A DNA stretch of 64,000 nucleotides from Carcharhinus amblyrhynchos (Eukaryota). The notes below the pieces were generated by a model, which searched no databases, was not told where the DNA came from, and saw only the letters and a list, made by a program, of their open reading frames with translations. Of the stretch, positions 3,360-64,000 are shown piece by piece (position 1 is the first letter of the stretch; every line of letters starts with the position of its first letter). The position numbers were made by a program, and so were the translations under genes. The DNA is taken from positions 75,578,001 through 75,642,000 of the forward strand of contig OZ336884.1 in the NCBI GenBank assembly GCA_965287045.1. Reading direction: 5' to 3'.

Positions 3360-4833
3360 AGAACATAAGAACATAAGAAATAGGAGCAGAAGTAGGCCAT
3401 CTGGCCCTTCGAGCCTGCCCCGCCATTCAATAAGATCATGGCTGATCTGTCGTGGCTCAGTTCCACTTTCCCGCCCTCTCCCCATAACCCTTAATCCCTT
3501 CTCTTATCAAAAACCCATCAACCCGCTTCTTAAAAATATTTAGCGAGGCAGCCTCCACCACTTCAACGGGCAGAGAATTCCAGAGATTCACCACCCTTTG
3601 AGTGAAGAAGTTCCTCCTCAACTCCGTTCTGAACCGCCCCCCCTTTATCTTGAGGCTGTGCCCCCTAGTCCTACTGTCTTTTTTGAGCGGGAAGAGTCTT
3701 TCCACCTCTATCCTATCCATCCCATTCATCATCTTATACGTCTCAATGAGATCTCCCCTCATTCTTCTAAACTCTAACGAGTACAAGCCTAGTTTATTCA
3801 GCCTCTCCTCATAGCTCAACCCCCTCAACTCCGGTATCAGCCTAGTAAACCTCCTCTGCACTCCCTCCAAGGCCAAAATATCCTTGCGCAGGTGCGGCGC
3901 CCAAAACTGCACACAGTACTCCAGCTGCGGCCTCACCAATGCCCTATACAGCTGCAGCAAGACCTCCCTACTTTTATATTCAATCCCCCTCGCTATGAAG
4001 GCCAGCATCCCATTCGCCTTCCTGACCACCTGCTGCACCTGCACGCTGGGTTTTTGCGACTCATGCACAAGGACCCCGAGGTCCCTCTGCACCGTCGCCT
4101 GCTGCAGTTTTTCGCCACGTAAGTAATAGTCCTTCCTACCATTCTTCCTACCAAAGTGGACCACCTCACACTTGCCAACATTAAATTCCATTTGCCATTT
4201 CCTGGCCCATTCGCCCAGCCTATCTAGATCCTTCTGCAGACTCTCCACACCCTCCGCACAATTTGCCTTTCCCCCAATCTTGGTGTCATCAGCAAATTTC
4301 GACACCCTACACTCGGTTCCCTCCTCCAGATCATCTATATAAATGGTAAATAGCTGAGGCCCCAGCACCGACCCCTGGGGCACCCCACTAGTCACCAACC
4401 GCCAATCCGAATAGCACCCATTGACCCCCACTCTCTGCCTCCTATTTGACAACCAATCCTCTATCCACGCTAACACCCTACCCCCAACTCCATGTCCTCT
4501 GACCTTCTGCAGTAACCTCTTGTGAGGTACCTTATCAAACGCCTTCTGAAAATCCAGAAAGACCACATCCACCGGCTCTCCTCTATCCACCGCCCTAGAC
4601 ACATCCTCATAGAACTCCAGTAAATTTGTCAGACACGATTTCCCTTTAATGAAACCGTGTTGCGTCTGCCCTATCAAGCAATTCCCTTCAAGATGCCTCG
4701 CAATTTCCTCCTTAATGACGGATTCTAACATTTTACCTACCACAGACGTTAAACTAACCGGCCTGTAATTCCCCGCCTTTTGCCTGGCACCCTTCTTAAA
4801 CAACGGCGTAACATTAGCCGTTTTCCAGCACAC
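3360..4833 (-). mobile_element. Young 5'-truncated CR1 (HER1-like) LINE
   Basis: Uninterrupted RT ORF, then a 3' UTR and (TTCTTATG)n tail at 3360-3380; CpGs largely intact. Confidence 0.97.
3457..4833 (-). CDS. CR1 ORF2 reverse transcriptase, C-terminal 458 aa (no true start; 5' truncated)
   Basis: Motifs NYRPVSLTS, QHGF, FLDFQKAFDKVPH, GVPQGSVLGP, FADDTK, RDLGVLV, YCVQFWAP, RTRGHSLK. Confidence 0.9.
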   Translation of the reverse strand: MCWKTANVTPLFKKGARQKAGNYRPVSLTSVVGKMLESVIKEEIARHLEGNCLIGQTQHGFIKGKSCLTNLLEFYEDVSRAVDRGEPVDVVFLDFQKAFDKVPHKRLLQKVRGHGVGGRVLAWIEDWLSNRRQRVGVNGCYSDWRLVTSGVPQGSVLGPQLFTIYIDDLEEGTECRVSKFADDTKIGGKANCAEGVESLQKDLDRLGEWARKWQMEFNVGKCEVVHFGRKNGRKDYYLRGEKLQQATVQRDLGVLVHESQKPSVQVQQVVRKANGMLAFIARGIEYKSREVLLQLYRALVRPQLEYCVQFWAPHLRKDILALEGVQRRFTRLIPELRGLSYEERLNKLGLYSLEFRRMRGDLIETYKMMNGMDRIEVERLFPLKKDSRTRGHSLKIKGGRFRTELRRNFFTQRVVNLWNSLPVEVVEAASLNIFKKRVDGFLIREGIKGYGERAGKWN

Positions 4834-4839
4834 TATCTA

Positions 4840-13589: not shown

Positions 13590-14765
13590 CATAATTACTT
13601 CTGGGGATCCCTCAAATCAATCCTTGGTTCACCCCTATTTCTCATCTACAAAAGCTGTCCCACAGGGCTGAAAATATGCCAGTCTGTGCATGTACAGCAA
13701 AGATATCCAGCTCTACCTCACCATCAGCTCTCAAACACTCCCCGCCGCTAAGTCATCAGACTGCTCGTGTGACACGCAGTACTGGATGAGCAAAAATTTT
13801 CTCCGCCCATATTATGAAAGACCAAAACCAGTGTCTTCAGTCCCTACAACAAACTTTGTTTCCTAGCCACTGACTCAATTTTTCTCCCTGCCAACAGCTG
13901 GAGGCTGCACCGGACCGTCTAACACGTCCGTGTCAGATTTGATCCTGTTATGTGCTTCCAAGCACACATCTGCTTCATCACCAGGAACCACCCCCACTCA
14001 TCTGCTGCTGAAACCCCCATTCGTGCCTTTGTTATCTCCAGGCTTGACTATTTTAATTCACTTCCAAATCAAAAAAAAAATGCTGGAAAATCTCAGCAGG
14101 TCTGGCAGCATCTGTAGAGAAGAGAGTTGATGTTGAGTCCAGCTGACCCTTTCTCAAAGTCTCTCTTTGCTCTCAAACCTTTGACAAAGGGTCATCTGGA
14201 ATTGAAACATCAGCTCTTTTCTCGCCTTACAGATGCTGCCAGACCTGCTGAGATTTTCTAGCATTTTCTCTTTTGGTTTCAGATTCCAGCTGGCATCCCA
14301 TGTTCTAGTCCTAATAAACTTGAGGTCATCCAAAACTCTGCTTCTTGTATCCTATCTCACATCAAGGCCCATTTACCCATCACCCAATGCTTACTGACCT
14401 ATGTTGACAGTTAAGTGATTTAAATTTAGATTTAAAATTCTCATCCTCAAATGTCCTCTCCCTTCCTTGTCTCTGTAATCTCTTCCAGCCTACAACTGTC
14501 AGTTATCTCTGCTCCTCTAATTCTGGCATCTTAAGCATTCTAGATTTTAATTGTTCCACTATTGGTGGCTTCAGCAGCCTGGACCACAGGCTCTGTCATT
14601 CGCTTTGTTAATCTTCTCTTCCCTCCTTTAAGACAATCCTTAAAGCCAAAAGTTCAGTCATCTGCCCTAACAGCTCCTTGCTAGGTTCCATCTCACCTTC
14701 TTAAATAATGCCCTATGAAGCTCCTCAGGACTTTAAGCTGGAGGTGCTACATAAATATAATTGAT
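13590..14765 (+). mobile_element. L2-clade LINE 3' portion (interrupted at 14067-14290)
   Basis: Degenerate GDPSNQSLV/PLFLIY (GVPQGSILGP-like), MYSKDIQLYL (YADDTQLY-like), AETPIRAFVISRLDY. Confidence 0.75.
14067..14290. mobile_element. Palindromic Penelope-derived insert with degenerate hammerhead motifs
   Basis: Arms AAAATGCTGGAAAATCTCAGCAGGTCTGGCAGCATCTGT / ACAGATGCTGCCAGACCTGCTGAGATTTTCTAGCATTTT; inner TTTGACAAAGGGTCATCTGGAATTGAAAC. Confidence 0.8.
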
Positions 14766-22200: not shown

Positions 22201-25200
22201 CCATTAGCAGGTACAGCAGTGTATTAGTTAATTATAATCTTATAAATTTCAGTGAGTCACATGGGGAAATTCAGCAAGCCTATAATCTGGTTTCACAATT
22301 TCTGGATTAGGTTCCTTTGTTTAATGGGACAATAACTGAATTAATCAATTCTTACTAGCAAGCAACTTGGTAATATTCTTCCTGTACTACTTCACCAATA
22401 GCATGTAGTAACTTTAACATGATTAGTGTACCCATTACAGATCAACAAAAGGTGTGCAATGAAAAAAGGGATAATGCAATGTTTTTTGAATGATGGCTTT
22501 CATGGTGGCACTTACTTTTGATTTGCACACTTAAACTGTGAATTGCAAATTTTGTTAAAATTTGTGACCTGTAAAATCTGTATTTTTAGCTGCTTAAAAT
22601 CAGTTCATGTAATAATGTAATATGCACAAACTTTCAGCTATAACAATTTGCAATATAAATCTCTCAGGCACAGGCTTTGTATGCTCAAGTACTACTTTTC
22701 CAAAATAAATCGATTATTGGTATTCAACTTAAAGAAAATTCTAGAAAAATATTCTATTTCCAGGGTAGCAAACTTTTGTGGTCCTAAAGCTGAAGAATTT
22801 GAAAACCAATTTGTAGATCATTTATAAATCAACCCAGCTTTTCTTCAATCGACTCAAAGGACGACCCTATTTCTTCAGCATCAAGAGTCATGCTTTTGCA
22901 TATACTTGTGTACAAGTGACTTCTCATATTTCAGCTATGAAATGCTGTACTTGCATTAGTTAGCCTCAATTTTTTCACCCCGAGACACGTTTTCCTCACC
23001 TTATATTGCAAGTTGACATATGGGATCAAGCATGTGATACGAGCTGTATTGTGAAGATGTGCGGGAGTTTAGAACACATCCACACAAAGCAGACCATGCA
23101 TGACAATTGACAAACAGAAGTACAAAGCTGCTTTCAAGCCAGGAGGAGCAACCTTTGCTAATCTGTCAAAAAACTGCTGCAGTATGGAAATTTGGTGTTA
23201 GTGAGAAATTGGTGTGAAAATGGAGGAGGAATCCATCCTGAAGATGTCCAAGGCCAAATCTACAATCAAAACAGGGACCAGTCACTAGTTGGGGTCTTGA
23301 GAATCATGTTTCAGGATGAGCCCTCAAAAATTGCTGAAATAGCTACATCGTCACCAGAAATACAAGTGTATACATGCACTTCAGTACACAATATCAAATC
23401 CAGAGTCTAGCAAAAATTTCAGACCCATACCTAGTTGGTGTAGCCACTTTATGGAATGAATGGAACAGTTAGCTCGTGCTGTGGCAGACTGCAACAATTA
23501 CTCAGTGACTAAGGAATTAATGCCAAAATTCCCAGTTTCCAGCAAATTCATTATCAAACAGTGGCAAAACCTTGAATACCCATTTAGTCACATGGGCATT
23601 TATCCATGTTGCCAAGCAGCTAAACTGTGCAGTGGAAAGGGTCGAAATTAGTTTGAGAAAAACAAAAGACATGAGAAGACAAGACCCATGGTGATACTAG
23701 TCTGCAAGGCTGATAGAAAAAAATTAAAGCATATGGTAATTTAAATGTAAATCCATGCCAAACGTCAAGTTCCCTGCAGGGATACTGTGCATGTCTGTGA
23801 CAACATGTGGATGGATGAGGATGGAATGAAGTTATGAATGGATTGAGGAAATGTGGAATAGCCATCTTGGTGGCCTATGTAAGTTATGCAACTTTTAGTG
23901 CAAAGTATGTCCAGATACCATATAACTTGAGATCAAGAGGCACCTGGGAATAACACCCACAATACAGTTGCCCCAGGGGGTCTAATATCTGTAGTTCCAT
24001 CTTAGGATACATGCATCACAAGACATTCAAGTATCACATCTGCTCCAAAGGGAATGGGTGGATGATTAACAGAGAAGAAAAACCTTCACAAGAGTGAAGA
24101 TATGCATACTGACCTATCTGATATTTTGTGCAGCTTAATTAGTAAACTGTGGGATGCTATTAGTGCAACAAGTGCCAAATTGTTCAAAATAATGTTAAAC
24201 ATTCAATTTAATGGGTGGAAAAGAAGATGACAGTTGTGGAGGAATGATTTTAAAAAGCGTCAAATCGGGCATAGAGTTCCTTCCTTATGATGCAAGGTAA
24301 AGTAACTTAATTAATTGGGTGAACTTTGCGCCAGATGAAGACAATGGAGTTGACATTTTAAAAACACTTTGCTTGTGGTTAAAAAGGTATCTCTGTGCAA
24401 TTATTTAATTAACTAAATCATGCAGTTAATTTATTGTTGTGTCCACACCATCCCTCAATTCAAAATAGTGACTTCCAACACAACTGGTTCATATTTTGTA
24501 TCCTGTGTATGCATCAACCATTTTTAGAAAGAGGGTTCAAAGTTTCATTATATAGTTCTATGGGAGTCTGAAATAAGGACTTAAGGTGTGATGCTGTGAT
24601 ATTTTGATGTTTTATGTTTAAGGTGGGGCTGCTTTAAGAGGCAGTGTTTTGTCACAAGAGTCGGTTTGTCTGGGAAAACATGCAGCTCAAATGCTCAGAA
24701 AGCAAGATAATAACTGATTTTAGCACGGAATGTTTCATTGTGCATACCAAATCTAAAATCCCAGGAAAAGAGTCGTGTGAGTTTGGATTAGGTGGACTGA
24801 CAGGAACAGAGTCATGTAGTTAATGGGAGAAGCTAAGCTTGCAGGAAAGAAACAGTTTCATTCTCATTTTTAATTGCTGCCTGGAGCTGATGCACAGAGA
24901 AAACTCTCCCTCTCCCTAGAAGTTTTCTGTAAGCTCCAGGGCTGTAACTCAAGCTAAAGCAAGCATGCCTGTGTTTTGCTAACTAATTACAAAGAGGGGG
25001 TTTAAGTCTATAAGAGACATATTGCTTGATTGGAACTAATAGCAATTGGTTAGCAGTTAAGAATTGTACATTGTCATGTTTAAGTATTGTTCAACTGTTA
25101 AAGGTTAAGCTACTCCATTTGTAAGATTAAAACTGCTGTAAACTTTGATAAAAGCTGCCTAGTTTGTTAGTAGAATATCGCGAATAAAACATCCCATCCT

Positions 25201-28200
25201 CACATCAATGCCAACATATAAAAATTGTTGGGGGATAGTCTGGCTTTATAACATACCTTGGGGGTTCTGATCTGGCACCCAACAAAAAAACTGGGGGCTC
25301 TTCTCCAAGATTAAAAACTATAATTACTTGTTTGGCTTGGGGTTACTGAACAAAGATGTTGGGTTTTTTTTAGGTGTTGCATTTGGTTAGTTTAAGTAGG
25401 GAATGTCTTGTGGAAAAATGGCTCTTTCAGTGGCTAAGGTGTTCTTTGGCGTGGAAGAGGTCACTCGGAGTAGTTTACAAAAGATGATTGAAACAGAGCT
25501 TTTGGATTTATTTAACAAACTGAAGTTGACTGTATCTAAAGGGGCAAGGAGGACAGAGATAAATTCAGTGATAGCTCAGTATTTAAAATTGCTACAAATA
25601 ATTGGACTTGGAATTGGCTAAACTTCAATTACAAATGAAACAATTACAACAAGAAAAGGAATTGAGACAGCTTGATCAAGGAAGAGAATTGAGACAGTTT
25701 AAATTGCAATTAAAACCAAAGACAGCGAAAGGTAATTGCAGCAAAAAGGGAAAAAGAGAGCGCATCTGGACTTTAGGAGCAGAAAAGCAAACTTCTTGAA
25801 ATGGTAGGAGTGCAAAAGAGTAAAACTGAACAGTACCAGCAAAAAAAAAGGCAGATTATATTGAATTGCTTCATAAATCAAGGTTTGGTTTTCAACATCA
25901 ATTTCAAGCTGAGAGATTGGAGAAGGAAGAAATCCTCAGGTGATCAAGGCAAAGGAGATCTCAGTGGAGATAGTAAGGATAGTTTACGTCAGGTTAAAAA
26001 AGAAACACGGTGGTAGAGAAATAAGAAACTTTAGATATTTTCATTATATTTAAGTTGGACACATCAAATTGCAGTGTTGGTGGCTTAAGAAAAGTACCGA
26101 GAAAAGACAGATGAAAAGCCTGTTAAATTCAAAAGGAAAACATGGTTGAAGCTTAAGAGGTGCAGAAGAATGTACCAGCTGTCCACAAGTTATTTGATAA
26201 GCAAATGCCAGATTTTAATGCTTTTATTGTGTGGGTAAGGTTACTTATGTGTACCAGGAGGAGTAGGTAAAGTTAAGATCTTGAGATATAGGAACAAGTC
26301 AATCTTTAATGGTGAAAAAGGAGGATCTATGTAGTTTGAAAGGAATATTGCCAGGAAAGTTAGAAATATGTGGAAGTAATGCTTGTGTTCCATTATGTAA
26401 GGTAAAGTTGGAGATTCTGGTGAAAAATGGTGGTTGGGGCAATAGAGAAACTCTCTTTTCTAGGGATATAGTTTACCCTGAATAATGATGTAGCTGGATC
26501 ACAGGTGGCAGTGATGCCTACTGTGGTTGAAAAGCAAGTGGAAAAAAAACAAACAACTTATGTGTTGAAGGAAGAATATCCTAATATGTTTCCCCACTAT
26601 GTGATAACAAGATCACAAAACACAGGTTGAAGCAGGAGGAGGAGGAATCAAAAAGTAAAAGAAGGTTGAGGTTCAGTTATCAGAAACAATCTTTGACGAG
26701 ATGGTTGGTAAAAAACAAGAACAGGTGGAGGATGAAGTGGATATTTTAGTTGAGGAAAACTGGCAAAAATGACAACAAAAAGATGTGGAGATAAAACTGT
26801 TATATCAGAAAGCATACACAGAAGAAAAATTTGAATGTATATGGCAGTGTTATTACATTAACAATTATCTTAATGAGGAAGTGGAGACCTTTACATATTC
26901 AGGCAGATGCAAAATGGCCAGAAGTTCAACAAGTTGTATTACCAATGGGTTATAGAAAGGAGGAGGTGTTGAGGGTAGTGCACGAGGTTTCAGTAGTAGG
27001 TAATCTACGAGCAAGGAAAACTTGAGCGAAAATACAAAATCACTTATTGGCTGGGAATGCATAAATATGTAGTAGAATTTTGTCATACATGTCAGGTAAT
27101 AGGAAAACCTCAAGCAGTAATCAAGCCAGCACCCTTTAATACCCAGTCTGGCATTTGAGAAACCTTTTACGGGGGTCCAAGTAGATTTTGTGGGGGCCTG
27201 TGCCTGAAACAAAGAATGGGAAATCAATATTTGTTTACCATTATGGACATGTTTACTAGATTTTCAGATGTCATTCAATTATGTAACAATTAGGGCTAAA
27301 AGTATTGTAGAGGAATTACCTTTTTAAGAACCACATGCAGACTACCCACAGAAATCCCATGTTATGTTGAAGTTATGGACAGCTTAGAAGTAAAGCAATT
27401 TAAATCCACTGCATATCATCCAGAATTGCAGGGAGCGTTAGAACAGGGGCATCAAAATTAAGACCATGTTGAGGCCCTATAATCGGAATTATCCAGACGA
27501 TTAGGAAAAGGAATGCCATTAGTACCTTTTACAATTAGGGATGCATCTAATGATGCAACAAAATTCAGTCTCTTTGAATTGATTTTTCATCATGAGGTAA
27601 GAGGATCACTAAAAGAAATTGGTGACTCAGCATTCTGAGATTACACTGTTGGACTTTTAGGAAGACGTTAATTAGGGCTGGTGAGTTGGCTAGATAATAT
27701 TTAAAAGTGGCACAGCATGTGGTGAAAACAGAAGCAGATAAGAGATCAAAAATTGGTAATTTTATTAGTGGACAAAAAGTCTTAGGACTATTACCATTGT
27801 TAGGGGAGCCAATAAAAGCAAGGCCTTATCAAATCAAAAGAAAACTAAGTGAGGTGATTTATTTGATAAGAACAGCAGATAGAAGAAAGACTGTGCCATG
27901 TTAATCTGCTCAAACAGTATTTTGATAGGGAAGAAAATCAGAAGGGGGATGTGTTAGCTGTTACAACTCAAACAAATCCAGATTATTGAATTTGACATTC
28001 CACAAATTAGATTGAATAATGAGGAAATAATCCAAAATTGGGATAATTCACACAATTACCTTCCAGGGAAAAATCAAAAGGACATGAAAGAGTTACTTCA
28101 ATCATTTGGAGCTATATGTGGGAACAAACTTGGAAATATTTACGTAATTGTGCATGATGTAGATAATGCTGTTCCAGTTAAGCAACACCAGTATGGACTT

Positions 28201-28226
28201 AATTCAAGTTAGCACAGGTTTAGAAG

Positions 28227-28570
28227 GAGGAGAAGTTGATGTTTGCTCAGTCTGAGAAGCAGCAACTGAAAATCTTGATCAAACACTATGAAGGGCTGGT
28301 GGATACTTACAAATCTCAGTTAATGAAGACAAGAATGGAGGCAGATGAGTGCAGTGTGAAACTGGTGAAAGCAGTTAAAGATATGCTGTGAATAAGTGAG
28401 TAGGTGTGTGGAGGCAGGTGCAAGAAAAGTTGACTGATTTGGAGCCTGTTCCTGTATTGTTGAAGTTACCTGAGCATAAACTGCAGGACTGCCAACAACA
28501 GCTCATCTATGCAAAGAAAAATGTATGTCAGTTGGCAGTCACGTGATCTCAAAATTGAGATTGATGAGCA
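28227..28570 (+). pseudogene. ODF2: Intronless ODF2/cenexin (or ODF2L)-like coiled-coil fragment
   Basis: GEKLMFAQSEKQQLKILIKHYEGLVDTYKSQLMKTRMEADE..RQVQEKLTDLEPVPVLLKLPEHKLQDCQQQL..DLKIEIDEQ aligns by eye to ODF2 EDKLNQAHLEVQQLKASVKNYEGMIDNYKSQVMKTRLEADE..RQFQSQLADLQQLPDILKITEAKLAECQDQL..DLRSRIEHQ; has stops and frameshifts; paralog not resolved. Confidence 0.8.
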
Positions 28571-29391
28571 TAAGAACATAAGAAATAGGAGCAGGAGTAG
28601 GCCATCTAGCCTCTCGAGCCTGCTCCGCCATTCAGTAAGTTCATGGCTGATCTGAAGTGGCTCAGTTCCACTTTCCCGCTTTCTCCCCATAACCCTTAAT
28701 CCCCTTGCCTACCAAAAACCTATCTACCCATGTCTTAAATATATTTAGCAAGGTAGCCTTCACTACTTCAACGGGCAGAGAATTCCAGAGATTCACCACC
28801 CTTTGAGTGAAGAAGTTCCTCCTCAACTCCATTCTAAACTGCCCCCCACCCCACCCCCCCCATCTTGAGGCTGTGCCCTCTAGTCCCGCTGTCCTTTGAG
28901 CGGGAAGAACCTCTCCACCTCTACCCTATCCATCCCCTTCATCATCTTATATGTCTCAATAAGATCCCCCCCATCCTCCTAAACTCCAACAAGTACAAGC
29001 CCAGTCTATTCAGCCTCTCTTCATAGTTCAACCCCCCTCAACTCCAGTATCAGCCTAGTGAACCTCCTCTGCACTCCCTCCAAGGCCAAAATATCCTTGC
29101 GCAAGTGCGGCGACCAAAACTGCACACAGTTCTCCAGCTGCAGCCTCACCAGTGCCCTGTACAGTTGCAGCAAGACCTCCCTGCTTTTATATTCAATCCC
29201 CCTCGCTATGAAGGCCAGCATCCCATTTGCCTTCCTGATCACCTGCTGCACCTGTAGGCTGGGTTTTTGCAACTCATGCACAAGGACGCCCAGGTCCCTC
29301 TGCACCGTAGCATGCTGCAGCTTTTTGCCCTTTAAATAGTAGTCCATCCTATTATTATTCCTGCCAAAGTGGATAACCTCACACTTGCCAA
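28569..29391 (-). mobile_element. 5'-truncated CR1 inserted into the ODF2-like fragment
   Basis: GKCEVIHFGRNN..RDLGVLV..LENCVQFWSP; (TTCTTATG)n tail; AGCA repeated at both junctions. Confidence 0.95.
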
Positions 29392-29784
29392 GCAGAGGCA
29401 TTGTATAACTGCAGACAACAGAATAGGACAATGATGTGAAGTAAGACTGTTTGATGAAACTCTAACATCATTTCCAATGAACTGTTGGGACAATGAATCT
29501 ACACAGCTTGCACAGAAAGACATCAATAGCTAAAAAACTATTGTCCATAGCTGATGTTTGAGTAAATTACAGTGGTTTTTGCAACAGCATGACTGCCACA
29601 ATGATCACAAACTAAAATTACAACAAATTCTGACACCAAAGAAGTCAATGTGATACACAACTTAAATGGAGGTATAGAGCCAATATTTTGAATCTAGATG
29701 ACCCTTTGTCAGAGCTGAACAACATTGAACCAGAAAAATATAGTTTAACTTTCACAGAGATTTTCAGAATTGGGGATTGTGTTG

Positions 29785-30375
29785 TTATTGAAAATCTGAA
29801 AGTGCAGGCCTAGGATGAAGGGAAAGAAGAAAATCCTAACATGAAGCTAAAAACTGAAGTCCCTGGAAAGAATTGAGCATGCCATTTTGCATCAAAAGGA
29901 GAGTTGGACTACCTGAGGAAGTAAGACTAGTTAGCAAGACGGGGACAGGGATAAGGTGACCCTTCTGGACGGTCTTGAGCACACATATGAAGTTGAGAAA
30001 GATGCAAGGGACAGGTTCTCTGTGACAGATTCTCTGTGACAGAAACTGTAAGTCGCTCAACCTTCCGGGAAAAGACTACTTCAGGATTTTGAAAAGTAAA
30101 AGAACTGGTTGGACTCAAAGGAAATTAAAAAGCAATGAGTGGATTGTGTCAATTTTCATTCAATCTAAAGTTTTACCCTCCAGATCTCATCTAGCTCTGA
30201 GGACATTACCAGAATTAATTTACAATCAAGACAACAGAGCTGGGCTTAGTCTTAGAAGCACAGCAGGATCAAAAACAGAAGGAGGCCTCCAAAAGAGGAT
30301 GCCGTGTGTCGAGAAAAGCAGGGAGAGAGAAGTAATCGTAAATGCTTTATCACAATTTTGAAGAAGTAAAACATT
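29785..30375 (+). pseudogene. Further degraded ODF2-like fragments (more N-terminal region)
   Basis: Frameshifted KLKSLERIE..GDRDKVTL (ODF2: IKNLERS..GDRDKESL), RLLQDFEK, KEASKRGCRV..ERS (ODF2: KESLKKAIRAQKERAEKS). Confidence 0.5.
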
Positions 30376-33300
30376 CAATTTTGGAAAACATGTAGCTGAG
30401 AATACAGGATAGTAACTGACTTTAGCTTGGAATGTGTTACTTTGAAGAGTTGATGGACCTTTTGTTTACTTTCTTCTCTTCAGATTTTAGACTAGGTATG
30501 CAGTCATGTGAGTTTTGATTAGGTTGTTTGACAGGAAGAGTCAGGTGTTTAATGAGAGGAGTTAAGCTTGGAGGAAAAAACAGTTTCATTTTTTTTAATG
30601 AAGAGCAGTTGCTGCCTGAACCTGGTAGACAGAAGAACGTCTTTTTTTTGATCTGGCACCCTATTATAAAAAGGCCTCAAATATTTCAAAGCAGCATGTT
30701 AATAACTTTCCAAATATGATACCTGCATACAATAACAATCCCACTTGAAGACATTTTAAAAATGTAATTCATAAATGTACTTGAGCACTTGAATAGTAAA
30801 TGTTTGCTTGTTATTGTATACAATTTGAGCAAACTTAGTTATAAATTTATACTGCAACAGAAATACTCATCACAAATCAAGAATGAAGATCCAGGAGAGA
30901 TATGGGAGCCCCCTAAATAATAGAGTACTGTACTAAATATGTGCTGTCTTTGGATAACTGTAGAACCACTGACAATTTTAAAAAACTCAACTGTTCAACT
31001 AACCCATCATAAATGTGACACATGCTGAACTCTTAAAACACTCAAGAGGAAAATAGCATGGACAGAAATTCCCAAGAATAACAGTAATTTACAATATTCG
31101 CTTTGCAAATTGTGACACTCGCCAATCCCTCAATAGAAGACTTCAGTGTTATTTTTCACTGATCAACTCTAAATTTATCCCTAGTTTCTTGTAATGAGCA
31201 GCTAGATGAATAAACAGTACATTTTGCATCTCATTATTTCAGCTATTAAGTGAAAGGTCTGGTATTGATCAATTTAAAAAAAAATGACTCAGCAGTGCAA
31301 CTGAATAACTTAAGAACTATTACAACATGGCTAAAGTTTGCTATTCTATGGAAATTTTGCCATTATCAACACTGCTACATTAACTTGTAGGTCATTCAAT
31401 CTAAAAACGCTGATGATGCAACAGTACATTTGTTTTGTGTGCCCACCCCCCACCAAAAAAAAAGGAAACAGACTGTTTCTAACAGCAATGCTATTTCTCC
31501 ACTGCCAACAATGTTTCATGTGTGGTAAAATCTCATTTTTCAAATGATGCTATGGTATTAGATCTAAACAAATTCCTCAAAGTTTTCACTATTCTTAATA
31601 AAGTCAGTGCAGAGCATGTATGGTCATTGATGCTAACTGTGAACTGTGTAGTTTCAAAATATATCAGGACACAAAAACAAAATTAGGCTCATAGCAGGAG
31701 CAGACCATAAATTTAAGCAATTTGCCTTCTTCCTTCCTGAAGCTTAGGCTAATGATAGTCTGCTAAACTGAAACCTTTTGAACTGACAACGATTACTGCA
31801 GAAAGACTTTTAAAACATACACAGTAGCTCCATGAATCATTAGCATTATGCTCAATTGTTCTTTCCAGGGCATACAATTTCTGAATGGCTTCCACACAGA
31901 AACAAATCTAAGTACCACAAAGTTAGTTTAAAAAAAACTCCTACAAAATAATCCTACTCTCACACGAATTTGCTTTTTTTCCATTCATAAAACCACAGCA
32001 AACAACCCAAGATTCAGATCTTGCACTATTCTTGTAAGAATAAAGACCCTGTCATGGCATTCATTTGTGTACCTGCATGTACTGTTTCTGAAATTCTGTG
32101 GGTCATTATGCAAGTAGCTACTATAACTGACCAAATATTTCAATCCTGTCATTTACAAATACAAGCATCTTAATTTTCACTTTTAAAAATAAAAGATTTG
32201 TCAAATGATTTCCCACTTGCTAAGAAAGGCCAATTATTGTTTTCCTCTCTAATTTGAAACAAAATCAAAAATTGTAAGCAGTGTAGAATAAAGACATTCG
32301 CTGGCTGACTCAAAAAAAAATCACCAAAAGAACTATGATACTTGCATTTGTACCAACAGTATTAGCAAAATCCTTAAGATACTGAACAATGAGTTAAAAG
32401 CAGAAACAAATGATAATCAGCAGGCAAGCTATTTAATATGCAGTAGCACACAAAATATTTATATTTGATATTTCAAATGTGCAAGATACATTAAAAGCAT
32501 GTGAATGTTCAGCCAAGTTTTGGTTTTCTAATACAGCATCCCTCTTTTTTTCACTGCAGTAGTGGCACTACAACTGGCATCAGTGCACTGAGGTTAAGAA
32601 GGAAAAAAAGCCATGATGTCTTGAATAAAACGACTTAGATACTCGGTGACCATCTCACACATGAAAAGTGGTCATTTGGACAAAATAATTAAGATTGGAA
32701 AACAGCTTGCTGAACCCAAAAGTCAGAGCCTTCGGGAAAAAGAAGAAAATTGGCAACATAGGAGAAAAAAAACACAATACACCTGTACGGTAAAAAGGTC
32801 AATACCCCTCAAATATTCATACAATCTAATTTATATTTTCCACACTATCCTGACAGTCCTCATCAGTCTATCTTTTTGCAATTGAGAACCATGTAAAATA
32901 GGAAAACTGGATAGTACCATAAACTTCAAGACAAAAGCTTTGAACCAGCAAGACAAATTCTCCTCTTAACGAACATTAGTAAAGTTGAAAGATTGAAAGC
33001 CATAGTGGAAATGTTTTGCCCATTAAACACACTTAAATAAAATTCACAGTCAATTTGAATTAATGAGAGACACTAATTTGTTGACTTCTGATTTGACTGC
33101 CTAGCAATCTCAATTTCTATTCCTCCCAAGTGCATTTTAAAAAATATACGGCAGCATAACCTCCAAGCCAGTAGGTTTTGTCTTCTTCTCAATCATTTCA
33201 AGGTCAGCTGTAATTCATCAGTGAATCTATCATCTCAGTCCTGTTAAATGTGCTGCATGAGAAATGAAGTCATACTCTAAGTACAGGACAACCCATCTGC

Positions 33301-46940: not shown

Positions 46941-47917
46941 TCCCCACAGGAGATTGATGGGAATTAGAATGTGTGCAACAGAATTTCGAATGACAAGATT
47001 ACAGAGATAGTATTCTTTGCCAGGCTGCCAAACTCTATCTAGAAGTAGCAAAAAAGGTATGTATGAGAGTTTTGTAGCAGATGAGTTGGAAATGGGAGGA
47101 TGCAACTTGTTCATTTAGCAGTTTAGAGGTGGTACAAAAAAAAACTCCTTTTGGAATGCTTCGAAATTTCAGGTTTTACAATGAAAGAAATCAGATGAGC
47201 AGAGAATGTGTGTTAAACGAAACAAGTCAGCAAGAATAAAATACCATCTATCCAGCTTGTATTAACTTCTAAAAGTATTAAACTTAATTTCTTGTGCTAG
47301 CCACATAGTACTATTGTGCACTGGGCTAAGTGAATGTTCAGCAATTAATGGGGGATGAGTGGAAGTGTGAACACACTCACTATGGAAAATAATTGAAGTT
47401 CCAAAGTATGTTGTAAAAATGTTTCAAACAGTATTAAATAAAGTCTTCAACTTTCAGTCTTTTACAATAGTTTTTAATATTTTATGCATTGAGTTAAGGG
47501 ATTGAGTTTTAAGGATTCACAAGAAAAACATTATTTGCCTTGAAAGGAAGCAAATGAAAAGAGCTCATATGGAACCATATAAAAACTAAAAAAAAGGCAA
47601 ATCAGGCACACTGTTAAAGGTAAACCATAACTTCAAGTTAAGGAAAGAAAAGCAAATTAATGACAAAATAAAGATATATTTTCTCATGACAAGCATAATT
47701 AATACCCGGATGTTCACAGTGGGATAGTGGAGGCAAAAATGTAATTGTCCTAGAATCTGATGAGACCATAGTAGATTTCTGTAGACCTGGATGGGCTATT
47801 AGACCTCCCTTATCTCTATATGTTTTTGTGATGTTGTACTTTATTTTCAAAGAAGGGACAGACAGAAGGAGTGAATTTAAATGTTAAGTGAGAATGGAAC
47901 AGCTTTGACTCACTGCA

Positions 47918-48131
47918 CAATTAGAAGTCTCACAACATCAGGTTAAAAGTCCAACAGGTTTATTTGATAGCACGAGTTTTCAGAGCACTGCCCTTCATCA
48001 GGTGAAGGGGCACCTGATAAGGGGCAGTGCTCTGAAAGCTTGTGCTACCAAATAAACATGTTGGACTTTAACTTGGTGTTGAGAGACTTCTAACTGCGCG
48101 TACCCCAGTTCAATGCTGGCATCTCCACACC
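47918..48131. mobile_element. Palindromic Penelope-derived element with two hammerhead cores and a 13-bp TSD
   Basis: ~88-bp inverted arms around AAGGGG (48005-48010); flanking direct repeat TTGACTCACTGCA at 47905-47917 and 48132-48144. Confidence 0.9.
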
Positions 48132-63749: not shown

Positions 63750-64000
63750 GAAATTTGCTGATGACACCAAGATTGGGGGAAAGGCAAATTGTGCGGAGGG
63801 TGTGGAGAGTCTGCAGAAGGATCTAGATAGGCTGGGCGAATGGGCCAGGAAATGGCAAATGGAATTTAATGTTGGCAAGTGTGAGGTGGTCCACTTTGGT
63901 AGGAAGAATGGTAGGAAGGACTATTACTTACGTGGTGAAAAACTGCAGCAGGTGACGGTGCAGAGGGACCTCGGGGTCCTTGTGCATGAGTCGCAAAAAC
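63750..64000 (+). mobile_element. Young CR1, 5'-truncated, runs off the window
   Basis: KFADDTKIGGKANC..RDLGVLVHESQK; matches the reverse complement of 4050-4300 with 2 differences. Confidence 0.95.

Follow-up and report, generated by a model that had tools for sequence, protein, structure and literature searches.

Capture of host transcripts by LTR retrotransposons has been described in mouse, and the parts of Tan et al. 2016 (PMC5131818) drawn on here report capture of several parent genes followed by onward spread, with the mouse 'Super' retrocopy as an example. The sections of Dong et al. 2016 (PMC4897178) used here describe another group of mouse retrocopies, the 33 circRFWD2 pseudogenes, which have LTR-rich flanks, adjoin MMERVK10C-int as a family and were presented with their mechanism left open. 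A third point of comparison is human circEPB41L2 (hsa_circ_0077837), which according to the available part of PMC10858955 is made from exons 2-4.

The locus examined here lies in a stretch of 64,000 nucleotides from the shark Carcharhinus amblyrhynchos (the window; all coordinates refer to it). As in the LTR-mediated retrocopies in the available text of Tan et al. (PMC5131818), host mRNA pieces take the place of part of the element's coding region, introns are lost, there is no poly(A), and the product spread further as a non-autonomous element. As in 'Super', several parent genes and a repeat are found at one locus, whereas the shark family seems to be older and, with tens of contigs, larger. 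The shark cargo differs in having a backward exon jump in each gene, and neither 'circ' nor 'shark' occurs in the main text of that article as available. With the circRFWD2 pseudogenes, as described in the sections used of PMC4897178, the locus shares an apparent non-colinear exon-exon junction (in the shark within 4 nt of the borders, and exact only with a 2-nt loss), the lack of poly(A), LTR-element flanks and a copy number in the tens. In contrast to those pseudogenes, which derive from one gene in a mouse ERV, the shark case chains up to three genes in one Gypsy-type element with overlapping switches, and its parent circles are putative. With regard to circEPB41L2, the available parts of PMC10858955 and PMC8021265 indicate that in this band 4.1-family circle, too, an exon of the FERM N-lobe is joined back to exon 2, and its forward primer translates by eye to a KGQVL stretch that is also present in the window; the shark paralogue is, however, likely a different one, the closest solved structure being band 4.1-like 3.

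The LTR element and its interrupted coding region

The element starts with a 5' LTR (24587..25284, plus strand), whose TG...ACA ends were read from the sequence, and immediately 3' of it lies a primer-binding-site-like motif (25292..25300, plus), which we take to resemble a tRNA primer site. A decayed gag and protease region with many stops and frameshifts (25409..26500, plus) was recognised by eye only and gave no match in Pfam. Decayed integrase follows at 26860..27900 (plus), as judged by two weak Pfam matches in the expected order, Integrase_H2C2 near 27045-27095 (E = 0.0048) and Integrase_p58_C near 27824-27892 (E = 8.5e-5), both under the curated cut-off. A linker and the apparent first residues of RT, assigned by eye, occupy 27958..28226 (plus) and are interrupted by a switch into ODF2. 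The initial annotation had traced pol to the start of RT; this is plausible by eye, but the apparent RT start gave no match in PDB, Pfam, viral or metagenome contigs. Integrase before RT is a feature of Gmr1-like Ty3/Gypsy elements. Here this order is read from the weak integrase matches and from an RT start recognised by eye, and since no tool matched the latter, the Gmr1 label is a lead only. The last pol-like and the first ODF2 codons (28224-28232) share a frame by eye, and translation of the original chimera may have continued from pol into the ODF2 coiled coil.

The 3' LTR is a remnant (30343..30663, plus; firm match from 30378) that lacks 60-90 nt at its start and about 360 nt in its interior, and over its blocks the identity to the 5' LTR is 79-82%. 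Four identical bases flank the element at 24583-24586 and 30671-30674; 9 unexplained bases lie between the decayed 3' LTR tip and the right-hand copy of these four bases, and a target-site duplication is doubtful. Between the two LTRs, downstream of the integrase remnants, host sequence sits in place of RT and RNaseH. It amounts to about 1.3 kb of same-strand host RNA sequence, divided by a later, 5'-truncated CR1 LINE on the minus strand (28569..29391), which is 88% identical to the CR1 copy at 3361-4178 and agrees with the initial annotation in position. The suggestion that RT motifs are missing downstream was also borne out, as six frames of 29392-30401 gave no RT family match in Pfam, and the insert 28227-30343 has no A run of 7 or more and hence, as had been noted, no poly(A) tail. 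Neither intact relatives nor family copies were found in metagenome and viral contigs, and Rfam gave no match anywhere in the window.

Elsewhere in the window, 63750-64000 and 4050-4300 form an inverted CR1 match (251 nt, 99.2%) that is far closer than the other CR1 pairs, suggesting a young copy or conversion, and an unbroken CR1 RT frame of 459 codons lies at 3457-4836 on the minus strand. The segment 39600-40250 is GC-rich and holds a short frame opening with ATG, possibly a first exon.

Host sources of the cargo

The first ODF2 mRNA piece (28227..28568, plus) gave a significant match in tblastn: from the proposed same-strand switch at 28227, 43 of 52 residues (83%) are identical to Carcharodon ODF2 (E = 2e-19). 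In a frameshift-tolerant alignment the piece covers aa 532-653 of Mustelus ODF2 (P0006) with a score of about 350, compared to a control maximum of 48 among 116 tiles, and among the 18 cartilaginous-fish proteins compared it is closest to the lamniform ODF2 proteins P0145 and P0137. The parent exons could be mapped from exon-skipping isoforms, which place borders at aa 562, 597 and 650. The piece therefore spans four exons without introns, and as three exon joins lack an intron in the window, its source was spliced RNA, as supposed from the beginning. The stretch DLKIE|IDE, named in the initial annotation as the point where isoforms diverge by splicing, is indeed an exon join: shark isoforms skip exactly to this point (5 of 132 proteins), and short ODF2 isoforms diverge at it. 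Stops and frameshifts in the piece indicate that this copy is dead, and it consequently provides no evidence of a new gene. Proteins that fuse an ODF2 piece to other sequence gave no sign in the 7 examined of 13 representatives. The shark ODF2 models P0002, P0137, P0142 and P0143 end in a lipocalin-like domain (Pfam match for P0002, similarity by alignment for the other three), which may represent read-through or an annotation fusion with the neighbouring gene.

Two short ODF2 pieces were located beyond the CR1 with a nucleotide profile derived from the ODF2 proteins of sharks, for which the control maxima were 29.8 (120 window tiles) and 28.6 (150 shuffles). Piece 2 (29824..29870, plus) corresponds to aa 666-681, scores 34.9 and ends at an exon end, and piece 3 (29871..29963, plus) corresponds to aa 382 to about 411-415, scores 45.3, contains a GDRDK-like motif and begins at an earlier exon start. 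Neither was recovered by tblastn of 26 ODF2 proteins, and all other post-CR1 alignments to the same profile scored 19.4 or less, within the control range. Only about 140 of the roughly 950 nt after the CR1 are ODF2. The proposal that more ODF2 pieces follow out of order therefore holds for aa 666-681 and then 382-415, which score above the controls, but most of the post-CR1 sequence is MEIOB-like, repeat or band 4.1-like.

The stretch next to the CR1 (29392..29673, plus) is host-like, multi-copy in contigs and probably the middle of MEIOB; protein search, PDB, Pfam and a motif search of papers returned no gene name for it. It is followed by an unstranded, very-high-copy repeat fragment (29674..29719) that occupies the MEIOB backward jump and matches both arms of a palindrome at 14066-14279; palindromic repeats occur in the window at 14066-14279 and 47915-48099. 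This fragment had been considered as MEIOB coding sequence, a reading that was dropped on its very high contig depth. The N-terminal OB-fold of MEIOB is represented at 29720..29823 (plus), where positions 68-98 of Pfam OB_MEIOB_N match 29739-29831 (E = 6.4e-5; 22.7 bits, below the curated cut-off of 27). The MEIOB-like pieces lie within one ODF2 exon, in place of about 11 codons.

After the third ODF2 piece comes a band 4.1-family FERM N-lobe piece ending in EDITR (29953..30212, plus), with band 4.1-like protein 3 as best structure match (E = 1.5e-6; E = 0.007 for a second frame). The last piece (30213..30342, plus), reached by a backward jump, consists of a 15-nt leader and a probable band 4.1 protein start, presumably the band 4.1 N-terminus, although PDB gave no match and the Atlas matches were all 0.81 or lower. 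The piece that runs into the 3' LTR is accordingly not ODF2, as initially annotated, but probably band 4.1-like. As judged by these similarities, at least three host sources, ODF2, MEIOB-like and band 4.1-like, are combined in the cargo as a mosaic on the element's strand.

Related copies and the age of the insertion

Contigs of 4 runs out of 24 were placed, on 29368-30800 only and at 80% likeness, and three of these are DNA runs (X1, X7 and X10); the contig tables hold the best 15 of 83 joints, 40 of 319 letter rows and 32 of 6777 pieces. Tens of related contigs cover the cargo in all three DNA runs, and some bridge the cargo joins (29368-30800), while in one possible RNA run the coverage falls mainly on the repeat fragment 29674-29719. 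In X1, summed contig depth, which is not equal to copy number, was 16 in the flank, 242-715 in the MEIOB-like bins, 226-489 in the main band 4.1 bins, up to 3115 in the LTR and 54,295 in the repeat fragment, which has its own loose ends; several cargo bins, including the short ODF2 pieces, reached a depth of only 31-112, some just 2-5 times the flank. At the best-covered MEIOB and band 4.1 positions at least 13-30 separate X1 contigs differ from the window. One X1 contig (22 other letters, 2 gaps, about 84%) extends from 29762 to 29900 and thereby includes the MEIOB/ODF2 join as well as the ODF2 jump. Among the joints listed, for which end positions are shown, 29643 is connected to 29942, and 30186 to 30341, by single contigs in X1 and X7, as is 30117 to 30307 in X7 and X10.

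From the 30664 bin onwards the depth is that of single-copy sequence, so that the multi-copy signal stops at the LTR tip, which argues against a segmental duplication. Moreover, the X10 sequence (organism D) continues from the locus across the LTR and on into the flank, differing from the window in 32 letters of 1095, and in X7 (organism C) the cargo is present with 18 differences in 750; the insertion thus predates the split of those organisms. Bridging paralogous contigs together with a single-copy flank show further spread as a unit for 29392-30663, and for this interval the non-autonomous family foreseen in the initial annotation agrees with the tens of related contigs in all three DNA runs. 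That annotation had also suggested template-switch capture of a germline-abundant transcript, which is supported as regards the capture of spliced host RNA by template switching within an LTR element, but the cargo is a three-gene mosaic and not a single ODF2 transcript. We consider it highly probable that an LTR element captured host RNA and spread as a non-autonomous family.

Backward jumps and the nature of the templates

In the window, ODF2 runs from aa 532 to 681 and then back to 382 to about 411, and both ends of the jump lie at exon borders. The acceptor, aa 382, is an exon start, as pig isoform P0106 skips aa 343-381 (1 of 132 proteins). The donor, aa 681, is an exon end, as a bamboo-shark isoform (P0148) departs right after this residue; a lizard isoform (P0206) skips that exon, and when the next exon was read with one leading base, 44 of 44 codons were compatible, compared to 0 and 11 in the other phases, which makes the donor a phase-2 exon end. 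A model joining the exon end to the earlier exon start scores 70.8, against 34.6 for a colinear one. However, it should be underlined that an exact back-splice requires a 2-nt loss, and that a gap-free jump at donor +2 and acceptor +4 scores 76.5; both jump sites carry similar letters. The alignment accordingly places the jump within 4 nt of the mapped borders, with a rough chance of 0.005 (10 borders, two less firm), while exact back-splicing is not proven. All three significant ODF2 pieces fall inside the implied circle, aa 382-681.

For band 4.1, the match ends at EDITR (30212), and most family contigs have an ATG 15 nt further on, where this copy reads AAG. Position 30229 is T in at least 22 contigs of X1 and at least 16 each of X7 and X10, giving ATG ACA ACA GAG, and in 363 of 409 summed depth in X1. 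We take EDITR to be a band 4.1 exon end and the ATG stretch to be the start exon; human circEPB41L2 is arranged in a comparable way, and the shark piece presumably extends one exon beyond it. The papers searched contained no usable exon map for band 4.1 or MEIOB. A MEIOB back-splice is not visible because the repeat fragment covers the jump. The flanking matches overlap at two of the six switches, MEIOB/ODF2 (8 nt) and ODF2/band 4.1 (11 nt), as would be expected for microsimilarity at switch points. Taken together, a single backward jump from exon to exon in each gene describes the out-of-order pieces better than a scatter of separate fragments does.

We somewhat favour a non-autonomous LTR family that arose by template switching on circular RNAs. 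The setting would be the particle of a Gypsy-type element whose integrase precedes RT, and in this particle the reverse transcriptase would leave the element RNA near the 3' LTR, copy co-packaged host RNAs in turn (band 4.1, ODF2, MEIOB and ODF2 again) and return to the element at the RT start, whereby RT/RNaseH would be replaced. The chimera would keep both LTRs and could be copied onward in trans by autonomous relatives, and the present copy would afterwards have taken up the CR1 and decayed. Each backward jump would represent plain read-through of a back-splice junction, and since there is one such jump in each of three genes, circles would be the simplest template; on this evidence, their use is somewhat probable. 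The presence of MEIOB and ODF2 suggests germ cells, the setting in which any heritable insertion has to arise. That all three cargo genes were copied from circles in one shark germline LTR particle lineage, with particles preferring circles over linear mRNAs, is a broader proposal that we put forward tentatively and with some doubt.

The same capture and spread may also have started from linear mRNAs, with RT slipping backwards at short shared sequence that happened to lie near exon borders. The higher score of the gap-free ODF2 jump (76.5 vs 70.8), the AG-rich letters shared by the exon ends and the MEIOB jump without a clean junction are in line with such slips, and non-colinear junctions can, according to the sections used of Dong et al. 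2016 (PMC4897178), also form when RT traverses open RNAs with structure. We nevertheless regard this as rather unlikely, as both ODF2 ends lie 4 nt or less from independently mapped borders (rough p 0.005), a backward jump occurs once in each of three genes, and that of band 4.1 lands just 5' of a start codon. Linear templates that were scrambled beforehand, whether by trans-splicing, by exon repetition or because an earlier chimeric retrocopy was transcribed and then taken up whole by the LTR element, predict exon-border jumps equally well, and the repeat fragment in the cargo could reflect such an earlier genomic stage. Yet the ODF2 end-to-start repeat was seen in 0 of 247 aligned proteins (among the indels listed, from aa 300-330 on), and a MEIOB piece inside one ODF2 exon fits switching during one synthesis, making pre-scrambled templates very improbable.

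Separate LINE-made retrocopies in a dead LTR element, whose two LTRs might even be unrelated insertions, have in their favour that a CR1 did insert at the locus and that the 3' LTR is incomplete and differs from the 5' LTR by about 19-21%. They would not account for the lack of poly(A), for every piece lying on the element's strand with RT/RNaseH missing, or for the same joins at other loci and a multi-copy signal that stops at the LTR tip; this explanation is largely refuted, and we give it hardly any weight.

Multi-mRNA capture by LTR elements and circRNA pseudogenes linked to LTRs have each been described in mouse, and what would be new is their combination and its shark setting; the literature searched, with most subscription journals and bioRxiv supplements lying outside it, held no report of LTR multi-mRNA capture combined with circRNA pseudogenes, nor of a shark case. 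In the sections used, Dong et al. 2016 (PMC4897178) did not settle by what mechanism circRNAs are retrotransposed, noting only nearby LTRs. A chain of back-splice-like pieces from different genes with overlapping switches is what template switching on co-packaged circles would predict, which can be checked in existing shark assemblies and makes the case useful for understanding how circRNAs are retroposed. If the templates were circular, the family would date specific germline circRNAs in cartilaginous fish, and if all three genes came from circles, it would represent a fossil record of old shark gonad circRNAs.
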